Positions 11,101 through 37,588 of a DNA stretch of 64,000 nt are shown here, in pieces. Numbering within the stretch: position 1 is the first letter of the stretch; every line of letters begins with the position of its first letter. Source of the DNA: Nemertoderma westbladi (lineage: Eukaryota > Animalia > Xenacoelomorpha); contig JAUCBJ010003467.1 of assembly GCA_032718475.1 (NCBI GenBank), positions 62,325 to 126,324 on the forward strand. The letters run 5' to 3'. Both the position numbers and the translations under genes were made by a program. The notes beneath the pieces were generated by a model. It saw only the letters and a program-made list of their open reading frames with translations, was not told the origin of the DNA and ran no database searches.

Positions 11101-11159
11101 GTATGTTTTAGTTTTAGTGGTGCGACGGGAATAACGGGATCCACAATTTTCGGGATTTG

Positions 11160-12320
11160 TGTTCGCGCTTTCAGACCTTTAGCAGTTTAACCTGCCAAAT
11201 TTAGATGTCTTCTAGATTATAAATCGACTTTAGCCTATGACGAGTATTTGATACACTACATTAGCCGAAGCCAGTCTATGCGCGACCATTCACCCGCTGG
11301 ATATACCCGGGAGACTGGATTCGGAAGCTTTGACCTTATTGCGGTGTAGGCCTACTGTATTATTCGACTGATCGTTAATATATAATCTCTGACCAATAAT
11401 ATTCACTTTCGGGAAATATTAACAGTTCCTTTAGGACGTGGCGCTCTAATTATGTATACAGAGTTATGACTTACACTAGACACAACGGGATGGCTATGGA
11501 TTCACGTATAAAGCGCATTCTTTAGGAGATGCTTTGTTATCAGTCACAATCAGGCACACTACCGCACAATACTGCACACCGATCTGCCGACCTTCACTAA
11601 TTTTAGTCACATATAAAGAGAACAGCAACCGACTCATGTAGTGCCTATGAAATAGCATTAGATTCACTCCAAAACCAATATAATGTAAGTCGCAATTGTT
11701 ATATGTAACCGGTCTCTTACCTTCAGTATATCAAGAAGATTGGGGATTTTATAATTATTTATCGATATTATCCAAATATAATAATATTCCATCAACTGAT
11801 ATAATTAATAACCAACAGTAAATAGCAGTAAAAATGCGGTGTGGTATGTTGGATTGGATTGATTGATTAGTTTGATAACAGATATACGTTTCTATGATCA
11901 AGCCTACTAATGTTTGGCTAAAGCCTGAAAACACAGAAATTCCAAAGCTGGTCTTCTGGCATCAGGAAAAAAGGTAAACATTGACCCATAATGCATTGCG
12001 CGATTTCCCGGAGGTTTCTGTACAAAAAACAGGAGAATCGCTCTGATTGGTTGTCCGAACAAAGGAACAAAGAAAAAGCTACACGTGTACATATCAGCTG
12101 TTAGCTGTCGTCATAGTAACTACACTGTGTCAAGAGGATTTTAGCGTATTGCGACATAAAATTGCTAGTTATGTCCGCTAAAGTACACATACAGAAGAAA
12201 TGGCTTTTTATGTCCACTAAAACACTGGTACAGTAAGGAAACGGATTTTTATGTCCGTTAAACCAACTACAGAGTACTTTGCGGGGAAAATAACCAGCTA
12301 ATTCCGCAAAAGCTTTTACA
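11160..12320 (-). repeat. 3' LTR of the BEL/Pao element
   Basis: tgttcgcgct...gcttttaca; differs from 26275-27435 by roughly a dozen substitutions (by eye). Confidence 0.95.
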
Positions 12321-12398
12321 CCGCTCCCAGAAAATGGGATTTAATTCTATAAAATATAAAAAATCACAGTTTCTAAAATATAAAAATACTCTAAACAG

Positions 12399-13282
12399 TT
12401 AGTCTTTCTTACGCGGACGGCGTTTACGCAGTTTTTTGAGGCTAGCAAGAGTCCTTTTCTCTTTGGGGCGAGCCACTTTACTAGGAGGGCTGTAACTCCT
12501 GGGTGAAGGGTGCAATACAATTGCATCATAAGGTTTAGGATTACGATCGGTGTATCCGCCGGTCGAGGTACCTGGTTGATCGATATCAACTTCAGTGGAG
12601 CGAGGTCTAACGGCCTTTAAGGCGCGTCTTAGGACAGCAGCTCCTACTGGTCCCTGACGGGTCGTCTGGACAATAGCGGTAGGTGGACCGTGAGTGGTGA
12701 GAAATTTCCTCGGTTTGATGATTCTTTCCAACTCGTGTTCTCGGGCTCTATCGGAATCGATATGCTTCTCCTCGAGCTGATTTTCCTCCGCTTGTCGTTG
12801 AAAACATTTGTCCAAACTCTTGCAGAAAGTAGGGCCGTCCAACTTCGATATCTGCTTAGAAATTCTGGATTTCCTGATCGAACTGAGATAAAGCTAATTC
12901 GTTTACCGCTTGGACTTGTTGCTGCAATTTACATTTCTCTAAACAATTGTAGGTTCCTTTTCTGATCTTTTGAAAAATAGTGTCCAACACGTTTCGTACA
13001 ACTCTCTCCTCCGCTTCGGTGACAGGTTGTATCGGGTTAAACCGGGACGATGATACGGTTGAATGGCGATATTAGATGTCCACGTCCCAATCCGGCTAGG
13101 TAAGATGGGCGAATATTTAGGAAGCCCACAACCGGAGAGCCACCGACTAACTGTTCGGGTAACACTAGATCTTTGAACAGTGAGTACAGTTCGGGAGGAT
13201 CCGTGATACTATTAGGATCAAAAGTCTGAGGTCTCACTAGGAAGTGAAGAGGTCTGACCGAGTATTCCGGAACTCTGATCAT
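12399..13282 (-). CDS. Broken or unknown ORFs at the 3' end of the LTR element (81 aa and 147 aa with a basic C-terminus)
   Basis: ORFs 13037-13282 and 12399-12842, with a further open stretch between them. C-terminal KKLRKRRPRKKD is NLS-like. No recognised domain. Confidence 0.35.
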
Positions 13283-13610
13283 AGGTTTATTTAAGGATCA
13301 TTTGAGTCGAGTGAGCGTAGGTGATACATCGAACAAGTTTCGCTCGAAACTCCCGTAAATATAGCGAGTAAAACTGTGTTTAAAGCAACGTCTCCGTGGA
13401 TGTTTATGTCTTTCCGTTTGTTGGTTGGGTCTTGGGCCTTCATCGCAATAATACCAAAGACGCACGTCTTGTAGGGGAAACGCGGGTGATATTTATTCGG
13501 TTTTACAATGTTCCTCCATTTGTTCGAAGCTATCTGGGATGACAGGTAGCGGTCGATCGGCGGTAAGATACATCATAGTGAAATAGAGCCGTTTGAGTTC
13601 TATCATAGGG

Positions 13611-14114
13611 TCATGATGTATACCTTGAGGATATCGAGTTTCTAGATTTTGTTGACTGGCAATATTGAGATATGTTTCCGCTCAGGAATTCCAGATAATC
13701 GTTGAAGTCGCTGCGTTTATCCGGCTCTTCAACGTCTTCTCTTTCGAGTCTGTTTCGAATAGAATTCTCGTGTTCCATTCTCGGTTTATCGTTCCGACTC
13801 CGCTGGGTAGGATATTTAAATAAAACCATTTCCCTTTTGGTGTCGACATCGTCCGTATCGTGTAAATCGATAGGATGGCCGGTAGTTAAGAAGTCCATAT
13901 ACGTACCATTACGATGCGTATAGCGAGCGGTGAATTTTCTATAGTCCAATTCACGCGTAAGTTGCTCCTGGGACATTGGCGGTTCGATATAACGACCATC
14001 ATCCTCCGTAGTAGTTGGACCAGCATCGCCGCGTATCAAGCTATCAACAAACGCTTGTAAAGGTAGAGTATATCGCTCCCTGATACCAAGATCATCTTCT
14101 ATCAACTCAGTCAT
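13611..14114 (-). pseudogene. Frameshifted duplicate of the 206-aa accessory ORF
   Basis: Near-identical to 16788-17408 up to a 1-bp insertion near 13680. Confidence 0.7.
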
Positions 14115-15786
14115 ATCTGCTATATGAGTTTATCAATATTATAATGAGTTTATATTTAGGCTAGCGGGCGTCGCTGCCTACCCCTCTCGGCCCCCGGACA
14201 GCGCAAGATCCTCAGCGCTGGTGTACTTTCGCCGATGTGCCTATCGCCAACGTCGTAGCTGCATAACGACCACAACAACCAGCGCGAGTCACTCCACCAT
14301 CCATCCCAAAGGCTTAGATTTACTTCAGGTTCTTACTGGAGAGTTAGGGCTACTTTCACAATTGCGACTCGCTACTGTAAACACACTTTAGTAGTAACAT
14401 TCACCTATAAACGCACAAATTCCACACAACTGTCACAAACCGCACACATTCGGGCCATTTGTCCGTTAGTCAAGTGCCTTCCAGAATGCCACGTTATTAT
14501 TGGGTATCCTGGGATACTAGCAGTATGCTATTTATTCCTTATGCTATTCAATGGGCAAGCTTTATTGTTCTTTTAACTCACTTCTAATTCTAGCGTGGGT
14601 GTTGCTATGGTGACATTATGGAACGCTAGCGGTAGAATTAGGGTAATTCTCATGCATACAGATCTGGGATGCTATTTAATAGTAATTCTTTAATTGTCAA
14701 TATTCCTCTTTATACATGATTTTATGAATTTTTATCGGCTATTGACCATATGTTGGAGATTCTCGCACACTAATACACTTAATAGGGTGAATCTCTGCTC
14801 CCATGATCTATTAATTAATGGAATTTTGGGAATGTTATAAATTGTATAAAAATGACAACTTATCAAATTCATTAAAAGATATGAATTTAAATTTATTCCC
14901 GTAAATTTTATTATTTAATATTAAAATAGACACAATTTTATTCCAGAACATATCTGGGGACTGGGATCCTTGATTCTAGGAAATTTGTTCTTTTAAGAGT
15001 ATCGGTAAGTGCTACGATATCTTAATTGACTAGAATTTTAAAGGATCTAAATTTTGACAGATTTTAATTTATAGATTTTCTAGAGTTAACTTGTAAGTAG
15101 TTACTCTATTGTATCTATTTGACAGATTTTATAAATATTAATAATTAATATTTAAGATGGGCACCGGTTTATTCCAGAACATGTCTGGGGACGTTAACCA
15201 TTGATTCTAGAATTTTGTCTTTCAAGTATATCGGTGGGTGCCGCGATATCTTAATCGACTAGAATTACAGATGGTCAAAGGGTTTAACAGATTTATTTTG
15301 CGTTATACGCTACTGTTAAAGGGACATCACGCTACTATATGTATTATTTAATATACGGTATGAGAGCAATATCGCACGAAGCAATGTCAGTGAGAAGAGG
15401 CAAGTCGTTTCCAAGGTCTACCCAGAGCTTGGTTTAGCCGAGACACGAGGATCTGAATTTTGCATTCCTAATACTCTACTTACCAATAATACTTGAATAT
15501 AGTAGGAGCTTTATTGTACTTTAATAAGTACGGATATTTCATCTTACTGTAGTCACGTATTTATAATGTAATACGGACAGTAAGGAAAGAGAAAAAGAAT
15601 TATTTCTCGCCGTCGCACTAAATATATAATATATAAGTAACTAAGTAATAAACGCGAATATATATTGCACTAATCTACTAAATAATCGCTAAAATAACAT
15701 TCTACTAAATAAAATTAAAGAAAACGATTATAATAAAATTACATAATAATACATACATAAATATAAAATAATAAAAACAAATGCTG

Positions 15787-16514
15787 TTACGTTGGGGAGT
15801 CCCTAGATGTTTGTTGGATTAGGGAGGTGGTCGTGGGAAGAGTATCTTGCCTTCCATAGTTTCCGGACAGTTCTCGGTCTCGTTCCAGTAAACATAAACG
15901 ACCAACTGGGCGATTGAGCTGCTGTGTCTCGAAGACAATTCCAGGTTTCCTCTTCGTCCTGGAATAGTGACGATAGAAACATCGCTTCAAATACACGACG
16001 GCCTTACAAAGCCGATTCCAGGATCTATAGTGGTCCATCGCTCCCAGCAGGAGAGGTGAGAGTCCCGGCGAGACGTCTGGTGTTCCAGATCTCCAGTCTC
16101 TCTCTCTGATCTCCACAACAGATCGGTTCGCGGTGGGGGAGTTTAGATCCACAGCGTCGTCCCTGGCAATGTGTAATACAGACAGATCTATCACGGGTTT
16201 AAATAACCTTGATTTACTCGTCCGGGTTTTAGGTTTGACTTTCTCCGCTCCCTTGGCTTGTCTAATCTCAGCCGTGGTAAGATGGGGAGGCCATTCATCT
16301 TCTTTACTTAGGAAGTCGGGTCCACCTAACCAGTCTGGAGTATCTGTCAGTTCTTGAGGAGTTGCTCCTCTGGAAGCGATGTCGGCTAGATTAATCGTCT
16401 CGGGGCAATATCTCCATTGATCTACATTAGAGTTAATATCGTCATTATCTGAGGAGTATGGTGTTCCCTCAGTTGGGTCGTCCACCTCACTGCTCTCCGA
16501 TTCCCATTCACTTA
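15787..16514 (-). pseudogene. Duplicated 3' end of the Gag-Pro ORF (RNase H C-terminal remnant)
   Basis: Copy of 19081-19808 created by the tandem duplication. Confidence 0.8.
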
Positions 16515-16787
16515 AAAAGTCTGAGGTCTCACTAGGAAGTGAAGAGGTCTGACCGAGTATTCCGGAACTCTGATCATAGGTTTATTTAAGGATCATTTGA
16601 GTCGAGTGAGCGTAGGTGATACATCGAACAAGTTTCGCTCGAAACTCCCGTAAATATAGCGAGTAAAACTGTGTTTAAAGCAACGTCTCCGTGGATGTTT
16701 ATGTCTTTCCGTTTGTTGGTTGGGTCTTGGGCCTTCATCGCAATAATACCAAAGACGCACGTCTTGTAGGGGAAACGCGGGTGATAT

Positions 16788-17408
16788 TTATTCGGTTTTA
16801 CAATGTTCCTCCATTTGTTCGAAGCTATCTGGGATGACAGGTAGCGGTCGATCGGCGGTAAGATACATCATAGTGAAATAGAGCCGTTTGAGTTCTATCA
16901 TAGGGTCATGATGTATACCTTGAGGATATCGAGTTTCTAGATTTTGTTGACTGGCAATATTGAGATATGTTTCTCTCAGGAATTCCAGATAATCGTTGAA
17001 GTCGCTGCGTTTATCCGGCTCTTCAACGTCTTCTCTTTCGAGTCTGTTTCGAATAGAATTCTCGTGTTCCATTCTCGGTTTATCGTTCCGACTCCGCTGG
17101 GTAGGATATTTAAATAAAACCATTTCCCTTTCGGTGTCGACATCGTCCGTATCGTGTAAATCGATAGGATGGCCGGTAGTTAAGAAGTCCATATACGTAC
17201 CATTACGATGCGTATAGCGAGCGGTGAATTTTCTATAGTCCAATTCACGCGTAAGTTGCTCCTGGGACATTGGCGGTTCGATATAACGACCATCATCCTC
17301 CGTAGTAGTTGGACCAGCATCGCCGTGTATCAAGCTATCAACAAACGCTTGTAAAGGTAGAGTATATCGCTCCCTGATACCAAGATCATCTTCTATCAAC
17401 TCAGTCAT
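16788..17408 (-). CDS. Accessory 3' ORF of the LTR element, 206 aa, unknown function
   Basis: ATG-initiated, hydrophilic ORF in the env position with no signal peptide or TM segment; preceded by a possible splice acceptor tagcag|atATG. Confidence 0.55.
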   Translation of the reverse strand: MTELIEDDLGIRERYTLPLQAFVDSLIHGDAGPTTTEDDGRYIEPPMSQEQLTRELDYRKFTARYTHRNGTYMDFLTTGHPIDLHDTDDVDTEREMVLFKYPTQRSRNDKPRMEHENSIRNRLEREDVEEPDKRSDFNDYLEFLRETYLNIASQQNLETRYPQGIHHDPMIELKRLYFTMMYLTADRPLPVIPDSFEQMEEHCKTE

Positions 17409-19080
17409 ATCTGCTATATGAGTTTATCAATATTATAATGAGTTTATATTTAGGCTAGCGGGCGTCGCTGCCTACCCCTCTCGGCCCCCGGACAGCGCAA
17501 GATCCTCAGCGCTGGTGTACTTTCGCCGATGTGCCTATCGCCAACGTCGTAGCTGCATAACGACCACAACAACCAGCGCGAGTCACTCCACCATCCATCC
17601 CAAAGGCTTAGATTTACTTCAGGTTCTTACTGGAGAGTTAGGGCTACTTTCACAATTGCGACTCGCTACTGTAAACACACTTTAGTAGTAACATTCACCT
17701 ATAAACGCACAAATTCCACACAACTGTCACAAACCGCACACATTCGGGCCATTTGTCCGTTAGTCAAGTGCCTTCCAGAATGCCACGTTATTATTGGGTA
17801 TCCTGGGATACTAGCAGTATGCTATTTATTCCTTATGCTATTCAATGGGCAAGCTTTATTGTTCTTTTAACTCACTTCTAATTCTAGCGTGGGTGTTGCT
17901 ATGGTGACATTATGGAACGCTAGCGGTAGAATTAGGCTAATTCTCATGCATACAGATCTGGGATGCTATTTAATAGTAATTCTTTAATTGTCAATATTCC
18001 TCTTTATACATGATTTTATGAATTTTTATCGGCTATTGACCATATGTTGGAGATTCTCGCACACTAATACACTTAATAGGGTGAATCTCCGCTCCCATGA
18101 TCTATTAATTAATGGAATTTTGGGAATGTTATAAATTGTATAAAAATGACAACTTATCAAATTCATTAAAAGATATGAATTTAAATTTATTCCCGTAAAT
18201 TTTATTATTTAATATTAAAATAGACACAATTTTATTCCAGAACATATCTGGGGACTGGGATCCTTGATTCTAGGAAATTTGTTCTTTTAAGAGTATCGGT
18301 AAGTGCTACGATATCTTAATTGACTAGAATTTTAAAGGATCTAAATTTTGACAGATTTTAATTTATAGATTTTCTAGAGTTAACTTGTAAGTAGTTACTC
18401 TATTGTATCTATTTGACAGATTTTATAAATATTAATAATTAATATTTAAGATGGGCACCGGTTTATTCCAGAACATGTCTGGGGACGTTAACCATTGATT
18501 CTAGAATTTTGTCTTTCAAGTATATCGGTGGGTGCCGCGATATCTTAATCGACTAGAATTACAGATGGTCAAAGGGTTTAACAGATTTATTTTGCGTTAT
18601 ACGCTACTGTTAAAGGGACATCACGCTACTATATGTATTATTTAATATACGGTATGAGAGCAATATCGCACGAAGCAATGTCAGTGAGAAGAGGCAAGTC
18701 GTTTCCAAGGTCTACCCAGAGCTTGGTTTAGCCGAGACACGAGGATCTGAATTTTGCATTCCTAATACTCTACTTACCAATAATACTTGAATATAGTAGG
18801 AGCTTTATTGTACTTTAATAAGTACGGATATTTCATCTTACTGTAGTCACGTATTTATAATGTAATACGGACAGTAAGGAAAGAGAAAAAGAATTATTTC
18901 TCGCCGTCGCACTAAATATATAATATATAAGTAACTAAGTAATAAACGCGAATATATATTGCACTAATCTACTAAATAATCGCTAAAATAACATTCTACT
19001 AAATAAAATTAAAGAAAACGATTATAATAAAATTACATAATAATACATACATAAATATAAAATAATAAAAACAAATGCTG

Positions 19081-22000
19081 TTACGTTGGGGAGTCCCTAG
19101 ATGTTTGTTGGATTAGGGAGGTGGTCGTGGGAAGAGTATCTTGCCTTCCATAGTTTCCGGACAGTTCTCGGTCAGGTTCCAGTAAACATAAACGACCAAC
19201 TGGGCGATTGAGCTGCTGTGTCTCGAAGACAATTCCAGGTTTCCTCTTCGTCCTGGAATAGTGACGATAGAAACATCGCTTCAAATACACGACGGCCTTA
19301 CAAAGCCGATTCCAGGATCTATAGTGGTCCATCGCTCCCGGCAGGAGAGGTGAGAGTCCCGGCGAGACGTCTGGTGTTCCAGATCTCCAGTCTCTCTCTC
19401 TGATCTCCACAACAGATCGGTTCGCGGTGGGGGAGTTTAGATCCACAGCGTCGTCCCTGGCAATGTGTAATACAGACAGATCTATCACGGGTTTAAATAA
19501 CCTTGATTTACTCGTCCGGGTTTTAGGTTTGACTTTCTCCGCTCCCTTGGCTTGTCTAATCTCAGCCGTGGTAAGATGGGGAGGCCATTCATCTTCTTTA
19601 CTTAGGAAGTCGGGTCCACCTAACCAGTCTGGAGTATCTGTCAGTTCTTGAGGAGTTGCTCCTCTGGAAGCGATGTCGGCTAGATTAATCGTCTCGGGGC
19701 AATATCTCCATTGATCTACATTAGAGTTAATATCGTCATTATCTGAGGAGTATGGTGTTCCCTCAGTTGGGTCGTCCACCTCACTGCTCTCCGATTCCCA
19801 TTCACTTACTTGGTATACCCGTTCTTTTGGTAACCTTTCCATGAGAGTTCTACGGGAAGGGCCAGTAAAGTACCAACCTACTCTAGTTCTTCCCGCATAG
19901 GCTTGTAGTGGTTGCGGTTGAGCAGGCCGTTTCTCCAATGTCTCAAGCGCCTCATGCGCATTTTGGCCGATGAGTATTTGCACTCCAGGGTAATCTGTGC
20001 TGAATCTAGGTATATTAAGCTGCTGGGTGAAATCGTCCTCATCCCAGTTATAAGGTTCTACTTGGCTGGTAGCGAAGTTCTTTATCGCCACCATTTTTAC
20101 TGACCTTATACTGTGTTCTCCTAGTTCATCCTGGGGGGTGGACAACGCACCTACATAATAATCGGCTATTACTGTAGATTTCCAAACCTGCATAATTCCT
20201 GACATGTTTAACTTAGTTCGGAACTTGGGTTGTCCAGCAAAGATGTCTTCGGCTAGTTCTTTGTCGATGAATGTTCCTGTGCTACCGGAGTCAAGGAGGG
20301 CGTTCACTATATAACTCCTTTCAGGTCCGTGGACCCTCAACTGCACTACGGGAAATTCTCGGATTCCTACATTGGAAGTTGGTGCTTTCCAAGATGGTTG
20401 TCGGTCAGAAGTAGTTAGGAGGAGCTCGCTGTCGGTGTCCCTTTTATACGTAAGTGCTCGATACACTGCGGTATTTATCTGGTAACAGGATTCGTTTTCG
20501 TCGGAGAATTCGTCCGTATAGAATCCTTCCATCTCAGAACTTTGGTCAGTGTCATTCACATCACTGAATTGGACATGTAGTTCGGACTCACTTACCTGAC
20601 TCGGGCTGTTTCGCTCGAATTCAGTGTGCAACAAGATATGATGTTTCGCACCGCACTTTGCACACCTTGCGTCGGAGTAACAGGTTCGCCGTTGGTGTCC
20701 TTGTCTGAAGCAATTATAACACAACCGCTTATCCCACATGACTTCACGTCTATCCTTTAATGATTTCCTCAGGAATTCATCACACGCACTTAAACGGTGG
20801 GGCCCGTCACACAGCGCACATTTCGGTTTGATGTTACTTACCTTATTTTGAGTAACGTTGTGCACACTCGTTCTTTCTTCAGGCTTTCTTACATGAATTC
20901 TCTTAGGAGACGTAGGAGGAGTTATTCTTACTTGTTCTCTCCTGTCATTGGTTTGAGACTTGAATTTACTTACGTCCTTAGGCGCTTTATTGACATAATA
21001 AGATCTTTCAGTGTCTTTCCCGCTGTCTTCTTCTTGAGAAGCCTGGCTTTCGCCGTCGTCGGTATAACACACTGGTGTTACCTTTCTCCTAGAAACGGGT
21101 TTCTCACTTACCTTGTTTTCCGGTGTCTTCTCTCTGGACTGCTTTAGGAGCTGTAATTTCACTTCTCCATCTAAGAATGACATGAGATCGGCCATGGTAG
21201 GGTCTCGTCGTTGTTGTTCCATCATATATAACACTTTCTTATCCCAGCGTGTGCCTACTCCACCCTTAGGTAAAGTAGAGGCCACGGCTCCAATAACCAT
21301 AGAACTCTGATATTCATGAGACTTACCTAGCCAATCTAATTGTCTACAGATCTCCTGAATCTCATCGGAAAACTCTATAATCCCGCTGCTAATGAATTTT
21401 CGGGGCGCTACCAATTTTGCATACAAATACCTAGCTATGTTATTCCTATTACCATACCTGATGTTTAGGGTATCCCAAACTTGTCTTAATCCATCTGGAT
21501 GTCCAATAAACTTTAACGCCATTAACTTGGGAGATCCTTCCAAGCACTCGATGAGGAATCTAAGTTTCTCTCCGTTAGATAGCACAGAGTTCTGTATGTT
21601 ATCTTTGTAATATTCATTAAAAGGTAACCATTTCATCTCATCTCCATTGAACTTGACGATCTCTCCCACCTTTACCGCTTGACGGGCTTCGGTTCTAGCC
21701 ATTTGACGCGTAAAACTTTCTTGGGCCATCGTGTTATTTAATATCGAGTTATTGGTATATAAATTTCTCGGATTATGATCAGGTCTATATGGAATATCAT
21801 TGTCAATAGATTTATAATTACCCTTAATAGGGTTTACTATAGGAGTTTCCACTTCACTAGCAGTATAGATGCGTGTAGGCTCCACACCTTGCGCATGAAA
21901 TACTTCAGACCTAACAGGTTGACACATTGTTACAGGGGGTGGTGGTATACCCTTTTGGAGATTTACTAGTTTGTCGCGTTCTAACGCAATACTTTGCTGC

Positions 22001-22497
22001 ACTTCTTGCAACTCTAACCTGCCCTCTCTAATTGTTCCCTTTAACTGCTGCACAGTCTTCCCCATCTCTTGGACCTGCTGAGAGGAGCAAGAACGGTGTT
22101 CCCTCAGCTGCCCGAGAAGGAGACCCATCTCCCGTCGCCCCTCATCTACCCACTCGACCGCCGAAGCGGGAGGCGCCAACGTTGTAGCGGGCGGACGAGG
22201 GACAACGAGCGACAAATCATTAATATTTCGCTCGGAGTCCAGGACATGAACATTTTCAGGGGTGGTTCTGTGGGGCACAGGTAGCTTAGTGCTGTGCAGA
22301 GGGAATTTAGAGGTAGGTTCAGGGAGTACAGGTGTCTCTATCACCGAAGGGGTGGCTTCGAGAATAGGCCTAATTATTTCAGGCTCATCTACTATAGTAG
22401 GGAGTCTTTCTATTTTAATTATTTGGTCTGTGGGTTCTGTACTACCTAAGTCTGTGTTAGTTAGTTGCCTTCTAACAGCTGGGGGCAAATCAGGCAA
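19081..22497 (-). CDS. BEL/Pao Gag-protease fused to an RNase H C-terminal remnant; RT and integrase absent
   Basis: Capsid-like KFNGDEMKW...EKLRFLIECLEG. Triple Zn knuckles CALCDGPHRLSAC, CYNCFRQGHQRRTC and CAKCGAKHHILLH. Protease ALLDSGST...ILIGQN...RVGWYFTGP. Then QWRYCPETINLADIASRG...WLGGPDFL..EWP. Confidence 0.9.
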   Translation of the reverse strand: MPDLPPAVRRQLTNTDLGSTEPTDQIIKIERLPTIVDEPEIIRPILEATPSVIETPVLPEPTSKFPLHSTKLPVPHRTTPENVHVLDSERNINDLSLVVPRPPATTLAPPASAVEWVDEGRREMGLLLGQLREHRSCSSQQVQEMGKTVQQLKGTIREGRLELQEVQQSIALERDKLVNLQKGIPPPPVTMCQPVRSEVFHAQGVEPTRIYTASEVETPIVNPIKGNYKSIDNDIPYRPDHNPRNLYTNNSILNNTMAQESFTRQMARTEARQAVKVGEIVKFNGDEMKWLPFNEYYKDNIQNSVLSNGEKLRFLIECLEGSPKLMALKFIGHPDGLRQVWDTLNIRYGNRNNIARYLYAKLVAPRKFISSGIIEFSDEIQEICRQLDWLGKSHEYQSSMVIGAVASTLPKGGVGTRWDKKVLYMMEQQRRDPTMADLMSFLDGEVKLQLLKQSREKTPENKVSEKPVSRRKVTPVCYTDDGESQASQEEDSGKDTERSYYVNKAPKDVSKFKSQTNDRREQVRITPPTSPKRIHVRKPEERTSVHNVTQNKVSNIKPKCALCDGPHRLSACDEFLRKSLKDRREVMWDKRLCYNCFRQGHQRRTCYSDARCAKCGAKHHILLHTEFERNSPSQVSESELHVQFSDVNDTDQSSEMEGFYTDEFSDENESCYQINTAVYRALTYKRDTDSELLLTTSDRQPSWKAPTSNVGIREFPVVQLRVHGPERSYIVNALLDSGSTGTFIDKELAEDIFAGQPKFRTKLNMSGIMQVWKSTVIADYYVGALSTPQDELGEHSIRSVKMVAIKNFATSQVEPYNWDEDDFTQQLNIPRFSTDYPGVQILIGQNAHEALETLEKRPAQPQPLQAYAGRTRVGWYFTGPSRRTLMERLPKERVYQVSEWESESSEVDDPTEGTPYSSDNDDINSNVDQWRYCPETINLADIASRGATPQELTDTPDWLGGPDFLSKEDEWPPHLTTAEIRQAKGAEKVKPKTRTSKSRLFKPVIDLSVLHIARDDAVDLNSPTANRSVVEIRERDWRSGTPDVSPGLSPLLPGAMDHYRSWNRLCKAVVYLKRCFYRHYSRTKRKPGIVFETQQLNRPVGRLCLLEPDRELSGNYGRQDTLPTTTSLIQQTSRDSPT

Positions 22498-23222
22498 TTT
22501 CGACGGTGGGACATTCTTCTACGTCTATTTAGACGAGATCTATTTCCTCCGCCTTCAGGATCGGTGGTATCGCCTTCATCAGATGATGTATATCCCTGTC
22601 TTTTGGGAGTAGATCGACTCATCATCTGCATTTGACTAGCTGTTAACTGTTTATTTATGCAGTCTTGATTCTCTTGAATATTTTCCAACTCTAGTTGGGT
22701 GGTCTCTTCAGATGTTCTTTGTTCTGCTTCTGCCACTGCCTCTGCCGCTTTTCTTTCCGCTTCGGCCGCTGCCACTGCCGCTTTTCTTTCCGCTTTGGCC
22801 GCTGCCACTGCCGCTGCTACTGCCGCTTTTCTTTCCGCTTCGGCCGCTGCCACTGCCGCTTTTCTTTCCGCTTCTGCCGCTGCCACTGCCCGCTGCCGCT
22901 GCTGTTGTCTTTCTGTACGTTTTTTCTTGACTTGTTCTTCTTGGACCCTAGCGATGCGGAGTCTTTCATCAAATTTAGCTTGGTTCGCAGCTAACATTTC
23001 CACATCGATTGCGTCCAACACAAGCTTGGCTCCTTCACTATTAGGGCGAAGTCCAGACAACCGTCTCCTCAACTCTTCGTCACCTACAAATCGTTGATAG
23101 TCTGACAGATAGATGTCAATAGCATCCCTCTTATGCGGTTTTTCTGCTGTCACTTCACTTTCCACTTGGGAAAAGGTAGCGTCTGTTGATTCTCCATGGG
23201 TTGAGCGCTCAGCCAGCTGAGA
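22461..23222 (-). CDS. Coiled-coil/Ala-rich ORF upstream of Gag (no ATG start)
   Basis: AVAAAEAERKA repeats. Same frame as 23226-24077 beyond TAG TAA; overlaps the Gag ORF, which lies in the -1 frame. Confidence 0.5.
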   Translation of the reverse strand, partial: SQLAERSTHGESTDATFSQVESEVTAEKPHKRDAIDIYLSDYQRFVGDEELRRRLSGLRPNSEGAKLVLDAIDVEMLAANQAKFDERLRIARVQEEQVKKKRTERQQQRQRAVAAAEAERKAAVAAAEAERKAAVAAAVAAAKAERKAAVAAAEAERKAAEAVAEAEQRTSEETTQLELENIQENQDCINKQLTASQMQMMSRSTPKRQGYTSSDEGDTTDPEGGGNRSRLNRRRRMSHRRNCLICPQLLEGN

Positions 23223-23225
23223 TTA

Positions 23226-24077
23226 CTACTGGGCAGTTCCTTGAACTTGGAGACTCACCCGCTGAAACCAAGTCTTTACGGCAACTTGCAACGACGTGTC
23301 TTGTCTTCTTTTCGAAGCCTCCTCAAAGGCCGATAAGATTAGTCTGATTCGTAGAATTCTTTCTCTAACTTGATAAAGCAGCTCTCCCTGCTCTTGAGGT
23401 CCTTGGGGTTGTCGAAACAGTTGTTCCTCTAATCGCTCCATAGAGCTGAAGAATCCCTGTACGTATCCTGCTGCTGACCTCTTCCACACAGCTGGAACGC
23501 TGGTTTCTTTTGTCACTCCCATCCTGTGTATGTCTTCCCAGGCAGCTTCCGATAAGTCATACGGTAGTCCGGGTCCGGGGAAGTTCCATTGCGACTCGAC
23601 AATAGACTTCAGTTCTTCCCTTGTATATCCCGCATAACTATCCTTGGTCGATCGCTTACTTCTCGCCCAATCAATCTGGTGTTCCTCCACCGCAATCAAT
23701 ACCCTAGTGAGTACGGCTGCAGGAAGGATGAGAAGGGGATCCGAATAAACCGCATCTGCCATCCTTGCTCCGCACTCGGGTGTCAGCTCTACAGTATCCG
23801 CACTACTGGAGCTGTCGGGCCGCTGAAAAATAAGTTCTCGGCTCGAGTGTTGCTGCTGTTCCGCTGCTTCTTGGTCCCGCTTGACCTGAGCTCGAGTGCC
23901 TATGATAGACCTATGGTGTTGGACTAGCCTAGGGTCTGATACTACTACTGGAGGGATGATCTTTCTTACAGTAGGAGGTGAGTTGAACTTCGGTCTCACG
24001 CGTTCCACACTCCTGTCTGGGTCACAGATGGTTGTATCTAGGAGACTGTCTGACAGGTTTTGCTTTGTGTCAGACAT
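23226..24077 (-). CDS. First ORF of the LTR element, 283 aa, unknown function
   Basis: aaacATG start; open 283 codons ending in TAG TAA. Confidence 0.55.
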   Translation of the reverse strand: MSDTKQNLSDSLLDTTICDPDRSVERVRPKFNSPPTVRKIIPPVVVSDPRLVQHHRSIIGTRAQVKRDQEAAEQQQHSSRELIFQRPDSSSSADTVELTPECGARMADAVYSDPLLILPAAVLTRVLIAVEEHQIDWARSKRSTKDSYAGYTREELKSIVESQWNFPGPGLPYDLSEAAWEDIHRMGVTKETSVPAVWKRSAAGYVQGFFSSMERLEEQLFRQPQGPQEQGELLYQVRERILRIRLILSAFEEASKRRQDTSLQVAVKTWFQRVSLQVQGTAQ

Positions 24078-25423
24078 GTTTGTTTGTACAGTTGAATGCC
24101 TACTGCTATATTACAGTTTAAGCAAGTCTAGTAATTCAGTATCACCGTTAGCCTAGTAATTAATTACCGATATCGTTACTCTATGTAACGTGATATATAT
24201 ACAATATATTAGAATACCGGTATACACTTATAGTATATATAAGTATAATTATGGACTAGAATTAATTACAGAATACCGGTATATAATTTCAGCACAAATA
24301 TATAGAAATATATAATAGGCCTATATCGTAAATACCGGTATACTATACAGCTTACACTTATAGTATATATAAGTATAATTATGGACTAGAATTAATTACA
24401 GAATACCGGTATAATTTCAGCCTAAATTTGTAGAAATAAATATAATAAGCCTATTGTAAATACCGGTATATCAATTATTTTAGAATAATTGAATTTCTGA
24501 ATTTTAGGGGTTACTTGGTTACTTTCCTTTACTTTATTACCGTTATTTAAGCAGTAGTCCAACTGATATTAAGACCTAATTGTTGTATGACAGGCCTACT
24601 ATTTTATAAATCGGTTTGAGTTGATTTATAATATATATACCCCTATAATGGGTTTTGTCAATATTTGAAATAAATGTTATTATTTCTGGGAAGGAGTCAC
24701 TGCACAGAAGCTGTACGCTCTCAGTGGAGTGCTACTTGTTGGATACTAAAACAAATAATTCTAATTTACCTAAGTTACTTAATACTACAAATTACGTACA
24801 ATTCGGGGTGAGATTACAATCTCTAAATAAACACAAAAAATTACACGTACAAATTTTTAGGGTAATTTTACAAGGAGTCTACAAACCAGCCTAACAAAGG
24901 GTTAGAATATCTGGTTATTACAAACAGACAGGGTACTACGGTATTTGAAAATAACAAAGCAGTAGTAAATATACTGCATTGTCCAGATAGGAAAAATACC
25001 ACCGTCTGACGACTTATAGCCGTATCGCTATAAGTACTACGTTATGTATCACGGAGTGTTCCTACCTAGAAGTTAATTACCGCGGTCTACCAGAACCAAC
25101 GTGCCTATTAACCACTTTACAACACAAATATACTGCCTACACACTAATTACCTTCGGAAAGCACTGTACACTAAACCCTAAATTAGGTACAAGTACTTAT
25201 ACGACAAATAATCAGCAGTTAGAAATACTTGTACAGCTAAAAGAACCACGGTATCTGCTGGAGTGACCGGGGCATAAAATCACCAGTCTTTACCTACGCC
25301 AAGCAGCCCTGATGTAGTACCGAGGTTAATTTAACTATAACGGTATGTATAACAAGCACAATTACTGTAGGAATAAACTTGGGTTGTGAATGTTGCGAAT
25401 AATCGCATAAACTCTGAATAATA

Positions 25424-25996
25424 AATATTACGCTACGCGTACAGACTACTCAAACAAAATACAGACCAAACGCTGGCAGACTACTATCAAGCCTAAACAA
25501 ACTACAGTATATGCAGACTCCGAAATGGTTAGTTATTATGCGTTCTAACCGAGTAGTACGACTTATTCTTTCAAGGGGATTTACCTCACAACACTGGAAG
25601 CCCCTACGTTCCTAACTAGTACTTTATCGGACATACACTCTACAGACACCGCAATCTCTTCAGACCTAACAACAGCCAGACAATAATCCAGCCTACAAAT
25701 TATCTAAATAAGAAATATTACGCTACCCGTACAGACTACACAAACAAAATACAGACCAAACGCTGGCAGACTACTATCAAGTCCAAACAAACTACAGTAT
25801 ATGCAGACTCCAAAATGGTTAGTTAGTATGCGTTCTAACCGAGTAGTACGACTTATTCTTTTGAGGGGATTTACCTCACAGCACTGGAAGCCCCTACTTT
25901 CCTAACTAGTACTTTATCGGACATACACTCTACACACACTACAACCTCTTTAGACTTAACAACAGTCAGACAACAGTCCAGCCTACAAATTATCTG
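25424..25996. repeat. ~290-bp tandem duplication in the LTR-element leader (plus a ~130-bp duplication near 24210-24470)
   Basis: aaatattacgctac...ccagcctacaaattatct occurs twice at period 290. Confidence 0.85.
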
Positions 25997-26263
25997 TACA
26001 ATCTGAGCAGGCTTACACATCTTCTGCTCAATATTAACCTACAAATAAATAAAACTGACAGAAATAGGCCTAAGTAAAATCCCAATAAAAACCAGGCGTC
26101 CCCGATTACTTATTAAGACCTACCAGTATATAATTATCAAAATCGAATAATACTGCTGTACTTGTACTGCTGTAAGTACCGGTCCGGGTGGTTAGGTAGT
26201 CAGGCCTACTAAGTACCGGTCGACCGGTACTTCAGCTTTATTGCCTACTGCAATACAGAAGCA

Positions 26264-26274
26264 ATATCTGTTAT
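26264..26274 (-). promoter_or_regulatory. Non-tRNA primer-binding site candidate (ATAACAGATAT)
   Basis: Immediately follows the 5' LTR end, has no TGG, and is perfectly complementary to the LTR-internal ATATCTGTTAT (27000-26990, element sense). Confidence 0.6.
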
Positions 26275-27435
26275 TGTTCGCGCTTTCAGACCTTTAGCAG
26301 TTTAACCTGCCAAATTTAGATGTCTTCTAGATTATAAATCGACTTTAGCCTATGACGAGTATTTGATACACTACATTAGCCGAAGCCAGTCTATGCGCGA
26401 CCATTCACCCACTGGATATACCCGGGAGACTGGATTCGGAAGCTTTGACCTTATTGCGGTGTAGGCCTACTGTATTATTCGACTGATCGTTAATATATAA
26501 TCTCTGACCAATATTATTCACTTTCGGGAAATATTAACAGTTCCTTTAGGACGTGGCGCTCTAAATATGTAAACAGAGTTATGACTTACACTAGACACAA
26601 CAGGATGGCTATGGATTCACGTATAAAGCGCATTCTTTAGGAGATGCTTTGTTATCAGTCACAATCAGGCACACTACCGCACAATACTGCACACCGATCT
26701 GCCGACCTTCACTAATTTTAGTCACATATAAAGAGAACAGCAAACGACTCATGTAGTGCCTATGAAATAGCATTAGATTCACTCCAAAACCAATATAATG
26801 TAAGTCGCAATTGTTATATGTAACCGGTCTCTTACCTTCAGTATATCAAGAAGATTGGGGGTTTTATAATTATTTATCGATATTATCCAAATATAATAAT
26901 ATTCCATCAACTGATATAATTAATAACCAACAGTAAATAGCAGTAAAAATGCGGTGTGGTATGTTAGATTGGATTGATTGATTAGTTTGATAACAGATAT
27001 ACGTTTCTATGATCAAGCCTACTAATGTTTGGCTAAAGCCTGAAAACACAGAAATTCCAAAGCCAGTCTTCTGGCATCAGGAAAAAAGGTAAACATTGAC
27101 CCATAATGCATTGCGCGATTTCCCGGAGGTTTCTGTACAAAAAACAGGAGAATCGCTCTGATTGGTTGTCCGAACAAAGGAACAAAGAAAAAGCTACACG
27201 TGTACATATCAGCTGTTAGCTGTCGTCATAGTAACTACACTGTGTCAAGAGGATTTTAGCGTATTGCGACATAAAATTGCTAGTTATGTCCGCTAAAGTA
27301 CACATACAGAAGAAATGGCTTTTTATGTCCACTAAAACACCGGTACAGTAAGGAAACGGCTTTTTATGTCCGTTAAACCAACTACAGAGTACTTTGCGGG
27401 GAAAATAACCAGCTAATTCCGCAAAAGCTTTTACA
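26275..27435 (-). repeat. 5' LTR of the BEL/Pao element
   Basis: 1161 bp, TG...CA termini; contains CCAAT (~27160), CACGTG (~27197) and a splice-donor-like GAAG|GTAAGA at 26836. Confidence 0.95.
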
Positions 27436-27990
27436 ATTTGAGATCGGGATTGCAACTGTCGGGATCCCGATTTTCGGCATCGGGATTTTTAATTTTATTG
27501 CGGCCAACTCATCTAAAACTTAAAATAGCTATCTGCCCTGCCAAAGAACAAAAATGCAACAAGACAAGAATGCTTTATAGGAGTAAAAATAATCGATTTT
27601 CGATATTCTCAATGTGCAGCTTCAATGCAGCAGGCTGATTGTAGTGGTAGTCGTATTAAATAAAGTATAGGGTGTGGGATTGAATGTGTATCTTTTACTT
27701 TCAGGGAAAAGTATAAGAATCAACTGGAGCAGAATAACAAATAAATAAAAAGATTTAGAAAGATCTACTTTTTTCCATAGGGTTCACAGCCAGTTTATTT
27801 CCCACGTACGTATTTCATTTAATTCGTGTTAAATATAATTTCAGCAACATTTTTAATAGAAATATACTTTTCATGCCCTATATTTTTTATTTATTATGCC
27901 ATATTTAATTTTATTACTTTTTATGCCTTATATTTTTTACTCGTTTCCCATATTTATGTAGGCCAAACAGTAACACGGTACAATGTACAA

Positions 27991-30900
27991 TAAGGTGGAG
28001 TGATTTGCACTTTTTTTCGAATTTGTGTTGGAACCGGTGTGGGAAAGTTGTGAAATCGGTCAAAAATAACTACTTCAAAGTTTTACAAAATTTCATCAAA
28101 ATCTTCACCTCTCTCACGACTTTCCAAAATTTGAAAATTGATGCGCGCCTTCAAAAATTTTAAAATTTTGTAATTTCATGCAAGCCTTTATTTTTTACTG
28201 AACCATGCAACAGTATCTTTAAAATGAGTCAATGGGAGCTGTGAAAACCTTTGATCTATTTTGGTTTATATCTTCACCTCCCTCCAGAGGTGACAAAATG
28301 GATAAAAAAAGTGCAAAAATTTAAAGTACTCTTGTACTTCCAAGTACTATTTTAAACCTACTGCGTACTTGATTTGCTAAACATTACCACAAATACTAAT
28401 AAAGAGATTGCGGGATTTTTAAAATTGTTGTTGATGAGTGTACTGTCAGGTGATGGCATTCTGAAATCAGTAATTCACTTTTTACATACTCTAAAGTCAG
28501 TCTTGACATACTGACATAACATGTTAGTATTAGTACTGTATGTCATTTCAGAATTTACTTTTGCTACTTGTATCGATTTATCAAAGACCAAAATGATCAA
28601 TTGTACCAGAAACATAACTGTCATCTTTAACTAGGTAGGCCTAACTGTTTCTGGTACACACAACTGTGTTTAGTGAACAGCTTGCTAGGGCAATTTATTA
28701 GCAAAATTTGGACAGTAGGCCTATACACAAATTTCAAATTAGAATTCATGGACATACATGTAAGTCTAATCTCACTATTAGTTATTGAACACTAATATAA
28801 GTTATAAGTTAAACTTGAAAGCTGGTCACTTCAACATGTCAGTGGATCTTACACCATCAACAAGTGGAATACGTATTGATACAAGGCCTAAGTGTCCTAT
28901 ATTTGGGTATGCAACGGAACTGCCTAAAAATAAGCTGCCTACATATCGTGACATATTGCTTTGCTTTCTAAACTTGCGACAACCATTTAGACGAGGAACA
29001 GCTGGAAATAAAAAAACTGCTGAAATATCTGCCAGTGTTGCCAAACGCAAACATGTTGCAGAGGTGTGGCACCGAGCATCCATTCCAACAATGCATTATA
29101 AAAAGTTAATCCAGAAGGTATCAAAATATTACGAAAAGTACCAGAAACTCCTTAAGAACATTAAGGGTCGTTCTCAGACTGAGGCTTTTAAGTTAAAGTT
29201 AATCGATTTTAAAACGGGTGGAGATTTGTTATTCGATGTTGCTTCCTGTAGGTGTGTAAACTTTGTAGAATGTCATTGTGATAAAGCTCTAAAGATACCT
29301 ATTATAGAACGTGCATTCATTACTGACCAAAGAAGTTCTCGACGAATGGCCATTGGAGGGGTGGATATCAAGGAAACTGAATTGAGACATAAACGCAACC
29401 TTCGGAAACAGGCTAATAGAGCTACTAACCTCGGTGACAATGCTACAGATCCTGTCCAAGTTGATACTGATTCCAGTTCTATAGCATCTGATCCAGATTC
29501 TGATAATGATTTTGTAGCCACAATTCGAAAACAAAGTAAACCATCATTATCCAGGTTATCTAGAGAGTGTGACCGGTATGGAGTGTCAGACCGTGCTGGT
29601 GCAGCTATTGCTACGGCCATTCTTGAAGATATTGGCATGGTTGGTCAGGAATCTTCTGATCTTGTTGTAGATCGCTCAAAGTTACGTAGAGAACGTTCAA
29701 AGCACCGTGCAGGTTTACAAAGTTCCATAGTTGTCGAAGTCAAAGGCCTCTACTTTGATGGGAAAAAGAACAGCACTAGAACACAGACAAAGGTAGGAAC
29801 TAGAGTCTTCCCACGAATGAAAAGTGAAAATCATATTGCTCTGGTAGAAGAACCTGGTTCAAAGTATCTTGGGCATGTGGCGGCAATTTCAGAAAAGTCG
29901 GTAGATGTACTTAATTCAATAGAAAGTTTTTTCAATCGAAATGACATTGCGATTATTGATCTAGATTGTGTGGGGAGTGATGGCACTAATGTAAATACAG
30001 GTAAGAATAGAGGCATCATCCGCCGTCTGGAAGAATCAGTGAAGCACCCAGTCTGTTGGTTCATTTGTTTACTTCATTGTAATGAATTACCATTACGTCA
30101 TTTATTTTCTCACTTGGATGGCACAACATCTGGTCCGAACACATTTACTGGGCCAATAGGAGGTCAGCTGGCATTGTGTCACCATCAACCAATTGTGAAA
30201 TTTAAAGCCATTGATGGACCACATCTATCACCGATTCTAGACAAATATAAGGACCTCAGCAGTGATCAGAAGTATCTGTATGAGATAGTGCATGCTGTTA
30301 AGTCTGGCAGCTGTTCTGACACTATTGCACATTGGACCCCAGGTCCAATATCCCATTCCAGATGGTTAACGGTAGCCAGTCGTCTCCTTCGTCTCTATGT
30401 ATCCACTCAGGAACCCACTGACACATTAGTAACGCTGTCCACATTTGTTATTAAGGTGTATGCACCACTATGGTTTGAAATCAAAGTTAACTGGTTATTC
30501 TTTCATGGAGCTTGTCATTTAGCTAAGATGATTTCCTATAGTAACTACTTACCAGATCATCTTAAATCAATTGTCCAAGATGTCATTCAGAGAAATGGGT
30601 ATTTTGGACATCCTGAGAACATTCTTCTCGCGATGATTTATGATGAAAACAAATACATCCGTCAGCTAGGGTATAGACGAATTCTTGCCGCCAAAAGAGA
30701 GTTTGACGCCAGAGAAGACCCCATACAAAAAATTCGGGTATTTGCACCACCGCCATTAAACTTTGACATCACTGAATCAGATTACATCGGACTTGTTGAT
30801 TGGTCAGTAGTAAAGAAATCTGTTCCTCCATTGTTGCGCAAGCTTACTGTTGAGGAGTTGACTGTACTCTGTACCTCTGGTGACATCATCGATCTACCAA

Positions 30901-31630
30901 AATTTCCCCATCACACTCAAGCTGTAGAAAGGATTATACGACTGATATCACAAGCAGCTTCTACACTTGTTGGTGGAGACCGTCGTGATGGCTACATAAG
31001 TTCGAAGTTGGAGTCCCGGTCTTTGATTCCTTCATACCAAACAAAGAAAGACTATAAATTCACTACCTAAACTATGATCATTCAACTCAACTCTTAAATC
31101 TGCAGAGCCGTGTCCGTCTGTAGACTATGTAATATAAACTGATTAATGGTAGTCTTGGGGGCAATTTAAATCAGTATTATATACTTGAATGTCATATAGT
31201 ATAATGGTTCATTCAGAAATAAATAAATTGAATATTGTTGTAGTCCAAAGTTATTTAAGTTTCTCATAATTTACGAAAGCTCATTTGACATTTTTGACAC
31301 ATTGCACCCCAAATTGTTAACAATTGACATCCCTTGAGGGAGGTGAAGATGTTAACCAAAATTTTTAAAAAAATTTTGCGGTTACTTTTGACTCTTTTGA
31401 AAGATTTTATTGCCAGGTTCAGTCAAAAATAAACGCTTGTATCAAATTACAAAATTTTAAACATTTTTGAAGGCGCGCACCAATTTTCAAATTTTTGAAG
31501 GTTGTGAGAGAGGTGAAGATGTTGATGAAATTTTATGAAACTTTGTAATAGTTATTTTTGACCTATTTCACAACTTTCCCACCCCGGTTCCAACTCAAAT
31601 TCGAAAAAAAGTGCAAATCACTCCATCTTA
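27991..31630 (+). mobile_element. Apparently autonomous hAT-related (hATm-like) DNA transposon with ~300-bp TIRs
   Basis: taaggtggagtgatttgcactttttttcgaattt... at the left and ...aaattcgaaaaaaagtgcaaatcactccatctta at the right; inverted similarity extends ~300 bp. Confidence 0.85.
28836..31070 (+). CDS. DDE transposase (hATm-like), uninterrupted
   Basis: YFDG, SDGTNVNTG, CLLHCNELPLRH (CxxH), HSRWLT and HTQAVER motifs; first ATG at 28836. Confidence 0.85.
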   Translation: MSVDLTPSTSGIRIDTRPKCPIFGYATELPKNKLPTYRDILLCFLNLRQPFRRGTAGNKKTAEISASVAKRKHVAEVWHRASIPTMHYKKLIQKVSKYYEKYQKLLKNIKGRSQTEAFKLKLIDFKTGGDLLFDVASCRCVNFVECHCDKALKIPIIERAFITDQRSSRRMAIGGVDIKETELRHKRNLRKQANRATNLGDNATDPVQVDTDSSSIASDPDSDNDFVATIRKQSKPSLSRLSRECDRYGVSDRAGAAIATAILEDIGMVGQESSDLVVDRSKLRRERSKHRAGLQSSIVVEVKGLYFDGKKNSTRTQTKVGTRVFPRMKSENHIALVEEPGSKYLGHVAAISEKSVDVLNSIESFFNRNDIAIIDLDCVGSDGTNVNTGKNRGIIRRLEESVKHPVCWFICLLHCNELPLRHLFSHLDGTTSGPNTFTGPIGGQLALCHHQPIVKFKAIDGPHLSPILDKYKDLSSDQKYLYEIVHAVKSGSCSDTIAHWTPGPISHSRWLTVASRLLRLYVSTQEPTDTLVTLSTFVIKVYAPLWFEIKVNWLFFHGACHLAKMISYSNYLPDHLKSIVQDVIQRNGYFGHPENILLAMIYDENKYIRQLGYRRILAAKREFDAREDPIQKIRVFAPPPLNFDITESDYIGLVDWSVVKKSVPPLLRKLTVEELTVLCTSGDIIDLPKFPHHTQAVERIIRLISQAASTLVGGDRRDGYISSKLESRSLIPSYQTKKDYKFTT

Positions 31631-32659: not shown

Positions 32660-33284
32660 AAAAGATATGAGCGTTCAAATCTTGCATGGTTTTGCACCGG
32701 TGCGAGGCTATTTTATTCTATTTAGTAAATAAACCATATTCTGGAACATTTTTTAAATGTATGAATAGCTACGTAATAGTATGATTAAAGATGTAATGCA
32801 TTGTTGCCCAGCTACGTATTTGGATAAACAAACTATTCTAGATTATGACGTATTTATTAAATAGAATAAAATAGCCTCGCATAGGTGCATAACCATGCAA
32901 AATCTGAACGCCCATATCTCCGCTATTTTTCAACGAAATTCAAATTGTGTTACATATTTGGAATCCTTGTACGGTCAGCTTTCTATCAGTACCCACCAAT
33001 CACTATAAGGTTAAATAATAACTGCGGTGTAACTGGTGTAATATCGCTGGAGACTTTTTTTTTAAGTTTTAAACGCTTTTTTTAAACTTTAACGCTTTTT
33101 TTAAACACTTGTAGCTAAAGATTGAAAGCAAAAATAAAAAGTCTGGCTCACCCAGTCAGTAGTGGTCGGGAGGTGAAACTATCTCTGTTTCAAATTTCAT
33201 GCAATCTCATTACGATTTGTAGAAAAATTAGGGGGGGGGGGGGGTGTCACTGAATTACGACACTATATTCTGGGAAATGGTGTA
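32660..33284. mobile_element. MITE/foldback related to the 4551-6590 family
   Basis: Inverted arms ~32663-32732 / ~32850-32918; terminal ttgtagaaaaat..ggggg..gacactatatt..atggtgta as at 6520-6587. Confidence 0.5.
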
Positions 33285-36887: not shown

Positions 36888-36919
36888 ATTCATGAACAAA
36901 ACAGGTTCATGATTTAATT

Positions 36920-37588
36920 TTGCAACCGCATCCTACAGAACCATTTTCTCATCTACGGACTGCTATGGTTCATCGATTAGCTGCTTCCGAGACAGCGCGC
37001 CTTAAGCAGTTATTGTCAACCGAGGAACTCGGAGATAGGAAGCCCTCTCAAGTGCTACGGCACATGCAACAATTACTGGGGACAGCTACAGTCGAACCCC
37101 AACTAATGCGAAATCTGTTTATCCAGAAGTTGCCTTCCAGTGTCCAAACTATTCTGGCTGTCTGTCCATCCACCACGGATTTAGTCACCCTAGCTGATAT
37201 GGCTGATAAAGTCATAGAAGTGACTCAACCTGAAGTCCACGTAAACCACCTAACGACTAGTACCGGTATTTCTGGTCTACCTCTGGCTGCGGGTCAAACG
37301 GCTGTGGAAAACTCATCTGTTCTACAGGATCTCATAAAAACTGTTAACGAATTGCGCTTGGAAGTGAACGAAATCCGCTGTGGCCATCCAACTGACCGAG
37401 ACAATCCATGTTCGGACAACTACTCAACATCCCGGTGCATGCGTAGCTGTTCCCGTTCCGTTGGTTGGTACAATTCTCAAGGATCGCTGTGCTATTACCA
37501 CTGGAGATACCGTGCTAGAGCGCAGAAGTGTACTAAACCTTGCGAATGGCAGAATCAGAACAACAACCATGGACAGTCGGAAAACTAG
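36920..37588 (+). pseudogene. Gypsy Gag (N-truncated)
   Basis: LLSTEELGDRKPSQVLRHMQQL and a C-X2-H-X9-C-X3-C finger. Confidence 0.85.

Follow-up and report, generated by a model that had tools for sequence, protein, structure and literature searches.

A BEL/Pao-derived retroelement of Nemertoderma westbladi as a candidate for self-primed reverse transcription

How does an LTR retroelement start reverse transcription if the sequence next to its 5′ LTR offers no site for a tRNA? This question is raised by a BEL/Pao-derived element of Nemertoderma westbladi, which we analyzed within a window of 64,000 nucleotides (GCA_032718475.1, contig JAUCBJ010003467.1, positions 62,325 to 126,324; all coordinates below refer to this window). 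For BEL/Pao elements, the ICTV profile of Belpaoviridae gives a primer-binding site (PBS) of 18 nt complementary to tRNA(Arg/Gly) and a length of 4–10 kb, and describes replication as poorly understood (PMC8742986). Tf1 of Schizosaccharomyces pombe follows a different route: bases 1–11 of its RNA anneal to the PBS, and RNase H cleaves between bases 11 and 12 (accessible text of PMC7175516). According to the accessible part of a preprint, Tf1 also needs two flanking duplexes, which complete a three-duplex “pretzel” (bioRxiv 2022.12.06.519325). A first-pass annotation of the window had proposed that the element described here is self-primed in a comparable way.

The element is located on the minus strand and extends from 27435 to 11160 (16,276 nt, ~16.3 kb). 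It is bounded by two LTRs of 1161 nt each (5′ LTR, 26275..27435; 3′ LTR, 11160..12320), which have TG…CA ends and show 12 mismatches to each other (98.97% identity). A 5-bp target-site duplication, CAAAT, flanks the element on both sides (upstream copy, 27436..27440; downstream copy, 11155..11159), and a polypurine tract, GGGAGCGG, adjoins the 3′ LTR (12321..12328). These are the terminal features expected of Belpaoviridae. The internal region contains a 3.3-kb tandem duplication on the minus strand (13220..19808, divided into 13220–16514 and 16515–19808; copies 99.7% identical), comprising the end of the gag-protease ORF, an AT-rich spacer and an unknown ORF (16788–17423). Smaller tandem duplications were seen in the 2.2-kb leader, at 25413–25995 (290 nt) and 24223–24470 (130 nt).

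The assignment to BEL/Pao is based on a minus-strand ORF of 1145 amino acids (19081..22518) encoding Gag and protease, with a DUF1759 Gag domain at residues 290–417 (E 3.6e-11), three zinc knuckles at 566–631 and the aspartic protease motif DSG at 743. Its homologs are Pao-type polyproteins: PF05380 was present in 7/7 matches of one search and in 19 of the 20 homologs scanned out of 150 listed in a wider search. After the protease, the ORF continues directly into a segment that lies 3′ of RNase H in full-length relatives, as seen in alignments to P0001 and P0002; in P0001 coordinates, the protease (residue ~780) is joined to the post-RNase H segment (residue 1360). Reverse transcriptase (RT), RNase H and integrase are absent from the element, and its ORFs gave no RT or rve match. 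Hence, the element is a non-autonomous BEL/Pao derivative and not a complete member. With Belpaoviridae (Semotivirus) it shares the DUF1759 Gag, the three zinc knuckles, the protease, the post-RNase H motif, the 5-bp target-site duplication and the polypurine tract, but it differs from them in lacking a pol with RT, RNase H and integrase, in lacking the 18-nt tRNA-type PBS and in its length of 16.3 kb in comparison to 4–10 kb (PMC8742986). Two further ORFs precede the 1145-aa ORF on the same strand, one of 294 aa 5′ of gag (23226..24110; no Pfam or Atlas match, two successive stops at its end) and one of 253 aa with an Ala/Glu/Arg/Lys-rich repeat (22461..23222), whose frame differs from that of the next ORF. 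Both are cut off from the 1145-aa ORF by stops and the frame change, leaving the gag region interrupted. Additional 3′ ORFs on the minus strand (16788–17423, 13611–14129, 16586–16867 and 12399–12893) showed no Pfam match and are possibly captured or accessory genes; Atlas returned only low-recognition matches for two unknown ORFs, which were not used as evidence. Three protein scans and one DNA pattern scan of viral contigs revealed no relative.

The element shares the window with several other features. A plus-strand, intron-less gene at 7424–8362 encodes an H3-fold protein that appears CENP-A-like by eye and whose long N-terminal tail consists of 10-aa repeats, and intron-less genes for a Derlin and a PLD-superfamily protein are located at 53154–53891 (+) and 57570–59000 (+). 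Finding three host genes of one exon each points to a genome with few introns. At 27991–31630, inverted repeats of ~300 nt surround a 762-aa ORF (28782–31070, +) without Pfam match; this structure may represent a DNA transposon of unknown type. A Ty3/gypsy-type protease-RT-RNase H-integrase region occupies four frames at 36896–40567 (+), for which no LTR pair was found in 33000–44000. Finally, an RT ORF (50317–51822, minus strand) lies between two 126-nt direct repeats that are 98% alike (49733–51838).

We then focused on the putative PBS. The 11 nt adjoining the 5′ LTR (26264..26274, minus strand) read ATAACAGATAT, and TGG is absent from the first 100 nt 3′ of this LTR, in line with the first-pass annotation; consequently, the CCA end of a tRNA cannot pair there. 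The exact complement of these 11 nt, the candidate self-primer, is indeed found inside both LTRs, at 26990..27000 in the 5′ LTR and at 11875..11885 in the 3′ LTR (minus strand, LTR nt 436–446), and it represents the sole complement of at least 8 nt between the PBS region and the LTR. As had also been noted, it is situated downstream of a CCAAT box (27165) and two E-boxes (27215 and 27202). A PBS that adjoins the LTR and is complementary to ~11 nt of the element’s own LTR is the arrangement known from Tf1/sushi elements. The Tf1 PBS begins with ATAAC, as the first-pass annotation had stated and the accessible text of PMC11042837 confirms, and the same five bases begin the PBS of the element.

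The probability of such a match was higher than first thought. The initial estimate of about 3e-4 was too low by a factor of a few, judging from shuffles and empirical rates: dinucleotide shuffles of the LTR yielded a complement in 6/5000 cases at offset 0 and in 18/5000 for offsets 0–4, and complements of this kind occurred at 7/13894 internal positions and at 24/47570 positions outside the element. For a feature singled out during a genome scan, a p of about 1e-3 carries modest weight. The statement that pairing stops at exactly 11 nt holds for unbroken Watson–Crick pairs, but not if a bulge, a mismatch and G-U pairs are allowed. In that case, pairing extends upstream through 27001..27010 (minus strand) with 26263–26255 and yields a 21-mer duplex (−16.9 kcal/mol). 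This energy was reached by 25/500 shuffles, and the extension is therefore not beyond chance.

RNA folding gave a mixed picture. A predicted hairpin just 3′ of the PBS (26240..26265, minus strand) covers its last 2 nt; the 11-mer still binds despite this hairpin when it is cofolded with the local PBS region, with a net −3.8 kcal/mol. When the entire 800-nt leader was folded, the probability of the 11-bp duplex was about 0.002. Regarding other signals in the LTR, canonical AATAAA/ATTAAA motifs occur +12 to +118 after the primer end in 9/12 relatives (see below), and no canonical poly(A) signal was found in the LTR of the element. A TATAAAA motif (26862..26868, minus strand) is located 122 nt 3′ of the 11-mer. 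Since this is about where the relatives carry AATAAA/ATTAAA, it may be a variant poly(A) signal rather than a TATA box. Downstream of the 11-mer there is also a splice-donor-like AAG/GTAAGA (26830..26838, minus strand). A pyrimidine-rich, acceptor-like CAG/G motif is found at 27053–27039 on the minus strand, 39 nt 5′ of the 11-mer, and could represent a cis- or trans-splice acceptor or occur by chance.

Relatives were examined for the same features. An alignment of homologs led to 72 BEL/Pao loci from metagenome contigs, of which only nine had a second copy that fixed the LTR end. Eight families entered the counts, without L053, which duplicates L054, and without L033, whose repeat end was ambiguous. 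Seven of these eight carry a non-TGG PBS 2–4 nt after the LTR with a perfect complement of 10–15 nt in their own LTR, while the eighth (L060) has a TGG PBS and a self-complement of 4 nt only. In L004, the complement is contiguous as in the window element. In the other six (L037, L044, L046, L054, L065 and L069), it appears only across a predicted GT..AG intron in the LTR. One donor motif was added after L069 had been inspected, and allowing any GT gave the same six junctions. Pairing each PBS with the LTRs of other families produced complements of at least 10 nt in 3/72 combinations, two of which involve related families with the same PBS. A blind junction search recovered complements of at least 11 nt in 6/38 upstream regions; L002 and L011 were missed through the pyrimidine filter.

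For nine more loci, the LTR end was chosen with the complement in view, and these were counted apart because this choice is circular; they comprise seven junction-type and two contiguous complements of 11–15 nt. In the full matrix, with the circular loci included, complements of at least 10 nt were found in 17/18 matched pairs versus 14/306 mismatched pairs, 12 of the latter among four related families with one common PBS. Altogether, the junction type is represented by L002, L005, L011/L012, L020, L034, L037/L041, L044, L046, L048, L049, L053/L054, L065 and L069. In these loci, the PBS is complementary (10–15 nt) only to the exon-exon junction of an LTR intron, with splicing predicted from motifs only, and the primer 3′ end lies 3–7 nt into the second exon. 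Contiguous self-complements of 10, 12 and 15 nt were found in L004 (1685–1861), L027 (1–277) and L062 (27–431), respectively. A TATA-like motif 5′ of the L054 donor was present in the 3′ LTR copy but not in the 5′ copy, and was not relied on. The window element does not belong to the junction type, in which the complement arises only after removal of an LTR intron: at strong-donor junctions in its LTR, the best complement to the PBS is 7 nt, compared to the contiguous 11 nt. As the complement spans a predicted splice junction in six of the eight relatives, the primer there could not be the unspliced first 11 nt, and the primer of the window element may likewise be internal rather than the start of the transcript. 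Furthermore, since exons are joined in RNA only, a complement to their junction speaks against a duplication at the DNA level in these relatives.

A second alignment provided loci with tRNA-type sites. It comprised 24 loci from contigs filed in prokaryote genomes, ten of which had no usable LTR pair; L085–L089 form one family. All 14 loci with both LTR ends carry TGG within 0–7 nt of the LTR, an identical 18-mer PBS is found in 10/14, and their self-complements reach 5–8 nt. With respect to their source, the contigs that carry the full-length, LTR-bearing BEL/Pao elements L073–L094 are filed under bacterial genomes but are probably misbinned animal host DNA. The putative PBSs of BEL/Pao elements thus fall into two states, one fixed and of tRNA type, the other variable and matched to the element’s own LTR, and the predicted PBS of the window element belongs to the second. 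The general statement that BEL/Pao elements normally use tRNA primers agrees with one sampled clade and with the ICTV profile, but does not extend to another large clade.

In a tree based on RT and RNase H, the self-complementary loci form one clade (FastTree support 0.90), with L060 and L061 outside. Within the same tree, three contiguous loci fall in three places among the junction types, and from this scatter we would guess that contiguous forms arose by repeated intron loss. An alignment of the contiguous LTR of L004 with the intron-containing LTR of L002 showed no clean intron-sized gap. Placing the window element itself is more difficult, as the comparison is limited to Gag-protease and a short segment 3′ of RNase H, which show no more than 28% identity to any other sequence, and the supporting relatives are distant from it (20–28% amino acid identity). 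In free trees, it sits on a long branch outside the self-complementary clade. A tree joining it to this clade was not rejected (AU p 0.31); the tested clade had been chosen in view of earlier trees, and six TGG loci with short ORFs were omitted from the last tree. Because the proteins of the element are BEL/Pao-type, its putative self-priming is likely independent of that of Tf1/sushi.

Taking these observations together, we consider it probable that a fragment of the element’s own RNA serves as primer for minus-strand DNA synthesis, by pairing of the 11-nt PBS with its own LTR. This reading is favored by the position of the duplex, which starts immediately 3′ of the LTR, at the base where the 3′ end of a primer has to be placed. 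The original self-priming proposal thus gains from the position of the complement, the missing TGG and the two-state pattern among relatives, whereas priming itself stays a prediction, and Tf1-like flanking duplexes were not significant, being matched by 21/300 and 43/300 shuffles. In the proposed course of events, transcription would start at or upstream of 27000, and the 11-mer in the R region would anneal to the PBS, which lies about 715 nt further 3′. A cleavage between 26990 and 26989, where the duplex has its 3′ end, would then correspond to the one made by RNase H in Tf1. From the 3′ end so generated, an RT supplied by an autonomous partner element would continue directly into the CA that terminates the LTR. 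If the primer were copied during plus-strand synthesis, PBS and LTR could stay matched while drifting. About half of Tf1 cDNA retains the copied PBS according to the accessible text of PMC11042837, which would offer a route for this. Within this reading, a start exactly at 27000, the mode of Tf1, appears somewhat less probable to us than one located more 5′ and combined with an internal primer, which is what the splice-junction relatives call for; neither reaches even odds. Since U3-R is present at the 3′ end of genomic RNA, transcripts that start downstream of 26990 would exclude the Tf1-type version, yet would still contain the 11-mer.

One alternative is that the PBS pairs with a host RNA without a free CCA end, such as a half-tRNA, the type used by Osser and Bianca, or some other small RNA, and that the complement in the LTR is coincidental. 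With a chance of 1e-3 to 4e-3, coincidence is conceivable, and part of the 11-mer resembles, over 6 nt only, what we take to be the anticodon loop of tRNA-Asn. In addition, half-tRNA priming is known in Copia lineages (accessible text of PMC6317226). However, a fixed host primer keeps the PBS near-invariant, as in the TGG loci (10/14 identical), whereas the non-TGG PBSs vary and track their own LTR. In two contigs of the public run X1, a PBS variant, identified by eye, differs at 2/11 positions and is still without TGG. Moreover, neither a tRNA (ARAGORN) nor an Rfam family was detected in the element, and no tRNA was found within the window. We therefore regard a host-RNA primer as unlikely.

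Even if the pairing is real and conserved, it could serve another role at the RNA level, for example in packaging, dimerisation or a switch between translation and replication, with priming achieved otherwise. The competition between the duplex and the hairpin overlapping the PBS is what a switch would show. This explanation nevertheless appears quite improbable to us, since the duplex lies 0–4 nt from the LTR end in 8/8 cases with fixed ends (seven relatives and the element), inside the 0–7 nt range of the TGG controls, and replaces the tRNA site instead of accompanying it. The loss of RT, RNase H and integrase and the interrupted gag region might instead point to a dead derivative with a functionless PBS, the site having decayed or been overwritten through a short inverted copy of LTR sequence. 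Against this stand the 99% identical LTRs and the intact 5-bp duplication, which indicate recent retrotransposition of the element’s RNA and hence a PBS that worked. Similarly, related copies with 80–99+% identity cover 30/30 bins of 23000–27500 in run X1 (contigs; 0.11 of words matched), and we consider a functionless PBS very improbable. Self-priming thus remains our preferred reading.

How does such an element compare with known systems? Self-priming has been described or predicted for Tf1/sushi, Tj1, Tcn1 and Copia TAR/Houba (accessible text of PMC4600332, PMC6317226, PMC5341516, PMC2864245 and PMC6934838). As far as these sources could be accessed, Tf1/Tf2 of S. pombe, Tj1, Tosmo1-3 and the Tf1/sushi chromoviruses resemble the element in that the PBS adjoins the LTR-terminal CA and complements 11 nt of their own LTR, with no tRNA site. 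In contrast to this Ty3/gypsy group, the proteins of the element are BEL/Pao-type and include no chromodomain integrase. In comparison to Tf1, the loop between primer and PBS would measure about 715 nt, the pretzel was not detected and the 5′-terminal place of the primer is only a candidate. By its anatomy, the element would work like Tf1 self-priming, yet it is not a member of Tf1/sushi. For Copia TAR (Houba, Osr-1) and the Tcn1 chromoviruses, self-priming was likewise inferred from PBS-LTR complementarity in a tRNA-using superfamily; it is a prediction for both Tcn1 and TAR/Houba in the accessible part of PMC6317226, and these elements belong to plant and fungal hosts and to other superfamilies. 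BEL/Pao proteins are shared with the splice-junction BEL/Pao clade (L002–L069), which has a non-TGG PBS 0–6 nt from the LTR and a 10–15-nt complement in the own LTR. Most of its members need the predicted LTR intron removed while the window element does not; L004, L027 and L062 are contiguous like the element.

This splice-junction-complementary BEL/Pao clade is undescribed. The words “PBS”, “tRNA” and “priming” are absent from the main text of three BEL/Pao papers (PMC554778, PMC3118150 and PMC6238403), and the accessible text of PMC3601003, PMC8220671 and PMC5443660 contains nothing on BEL/Pao priming. Overall, no report of BEL/Pao self-priming was found in the literature searched, which consisted mostly of open papers.

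With slightly less than even confidence, we put forward a broader picture in which tRNA-independent priming would be common, and possibly ancient, across BEL/Pao. In most members of one large clade, the spliceosome would assemble the primer from an exon-exon junction of the LTR, and intron-less forms would have arisen repeatedly. The primer would be an internal piece of the R region and not the first 11 bases, and the window element would represent a deep lineage that converged on the 11-nt, LTR-abutting PBS of Tf1 with its ATAAC start.

If the proposed mechanism is true, self-priming, which is proven only in fission-yeast Tf1, would reach a third LTR superfamily as well as animals outside the chromoviruses. 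That PBS-based annotation fails to identify a primer site in many elements of this kind would then be accounted for as well. The predicted RNA ends are a cut at 26990/26989 and the 5′ end of the strong-stop cDNA. Beyond the element itself, its relatives suggest a stranger idea, namely a primer that would exist only after splicing by the host.
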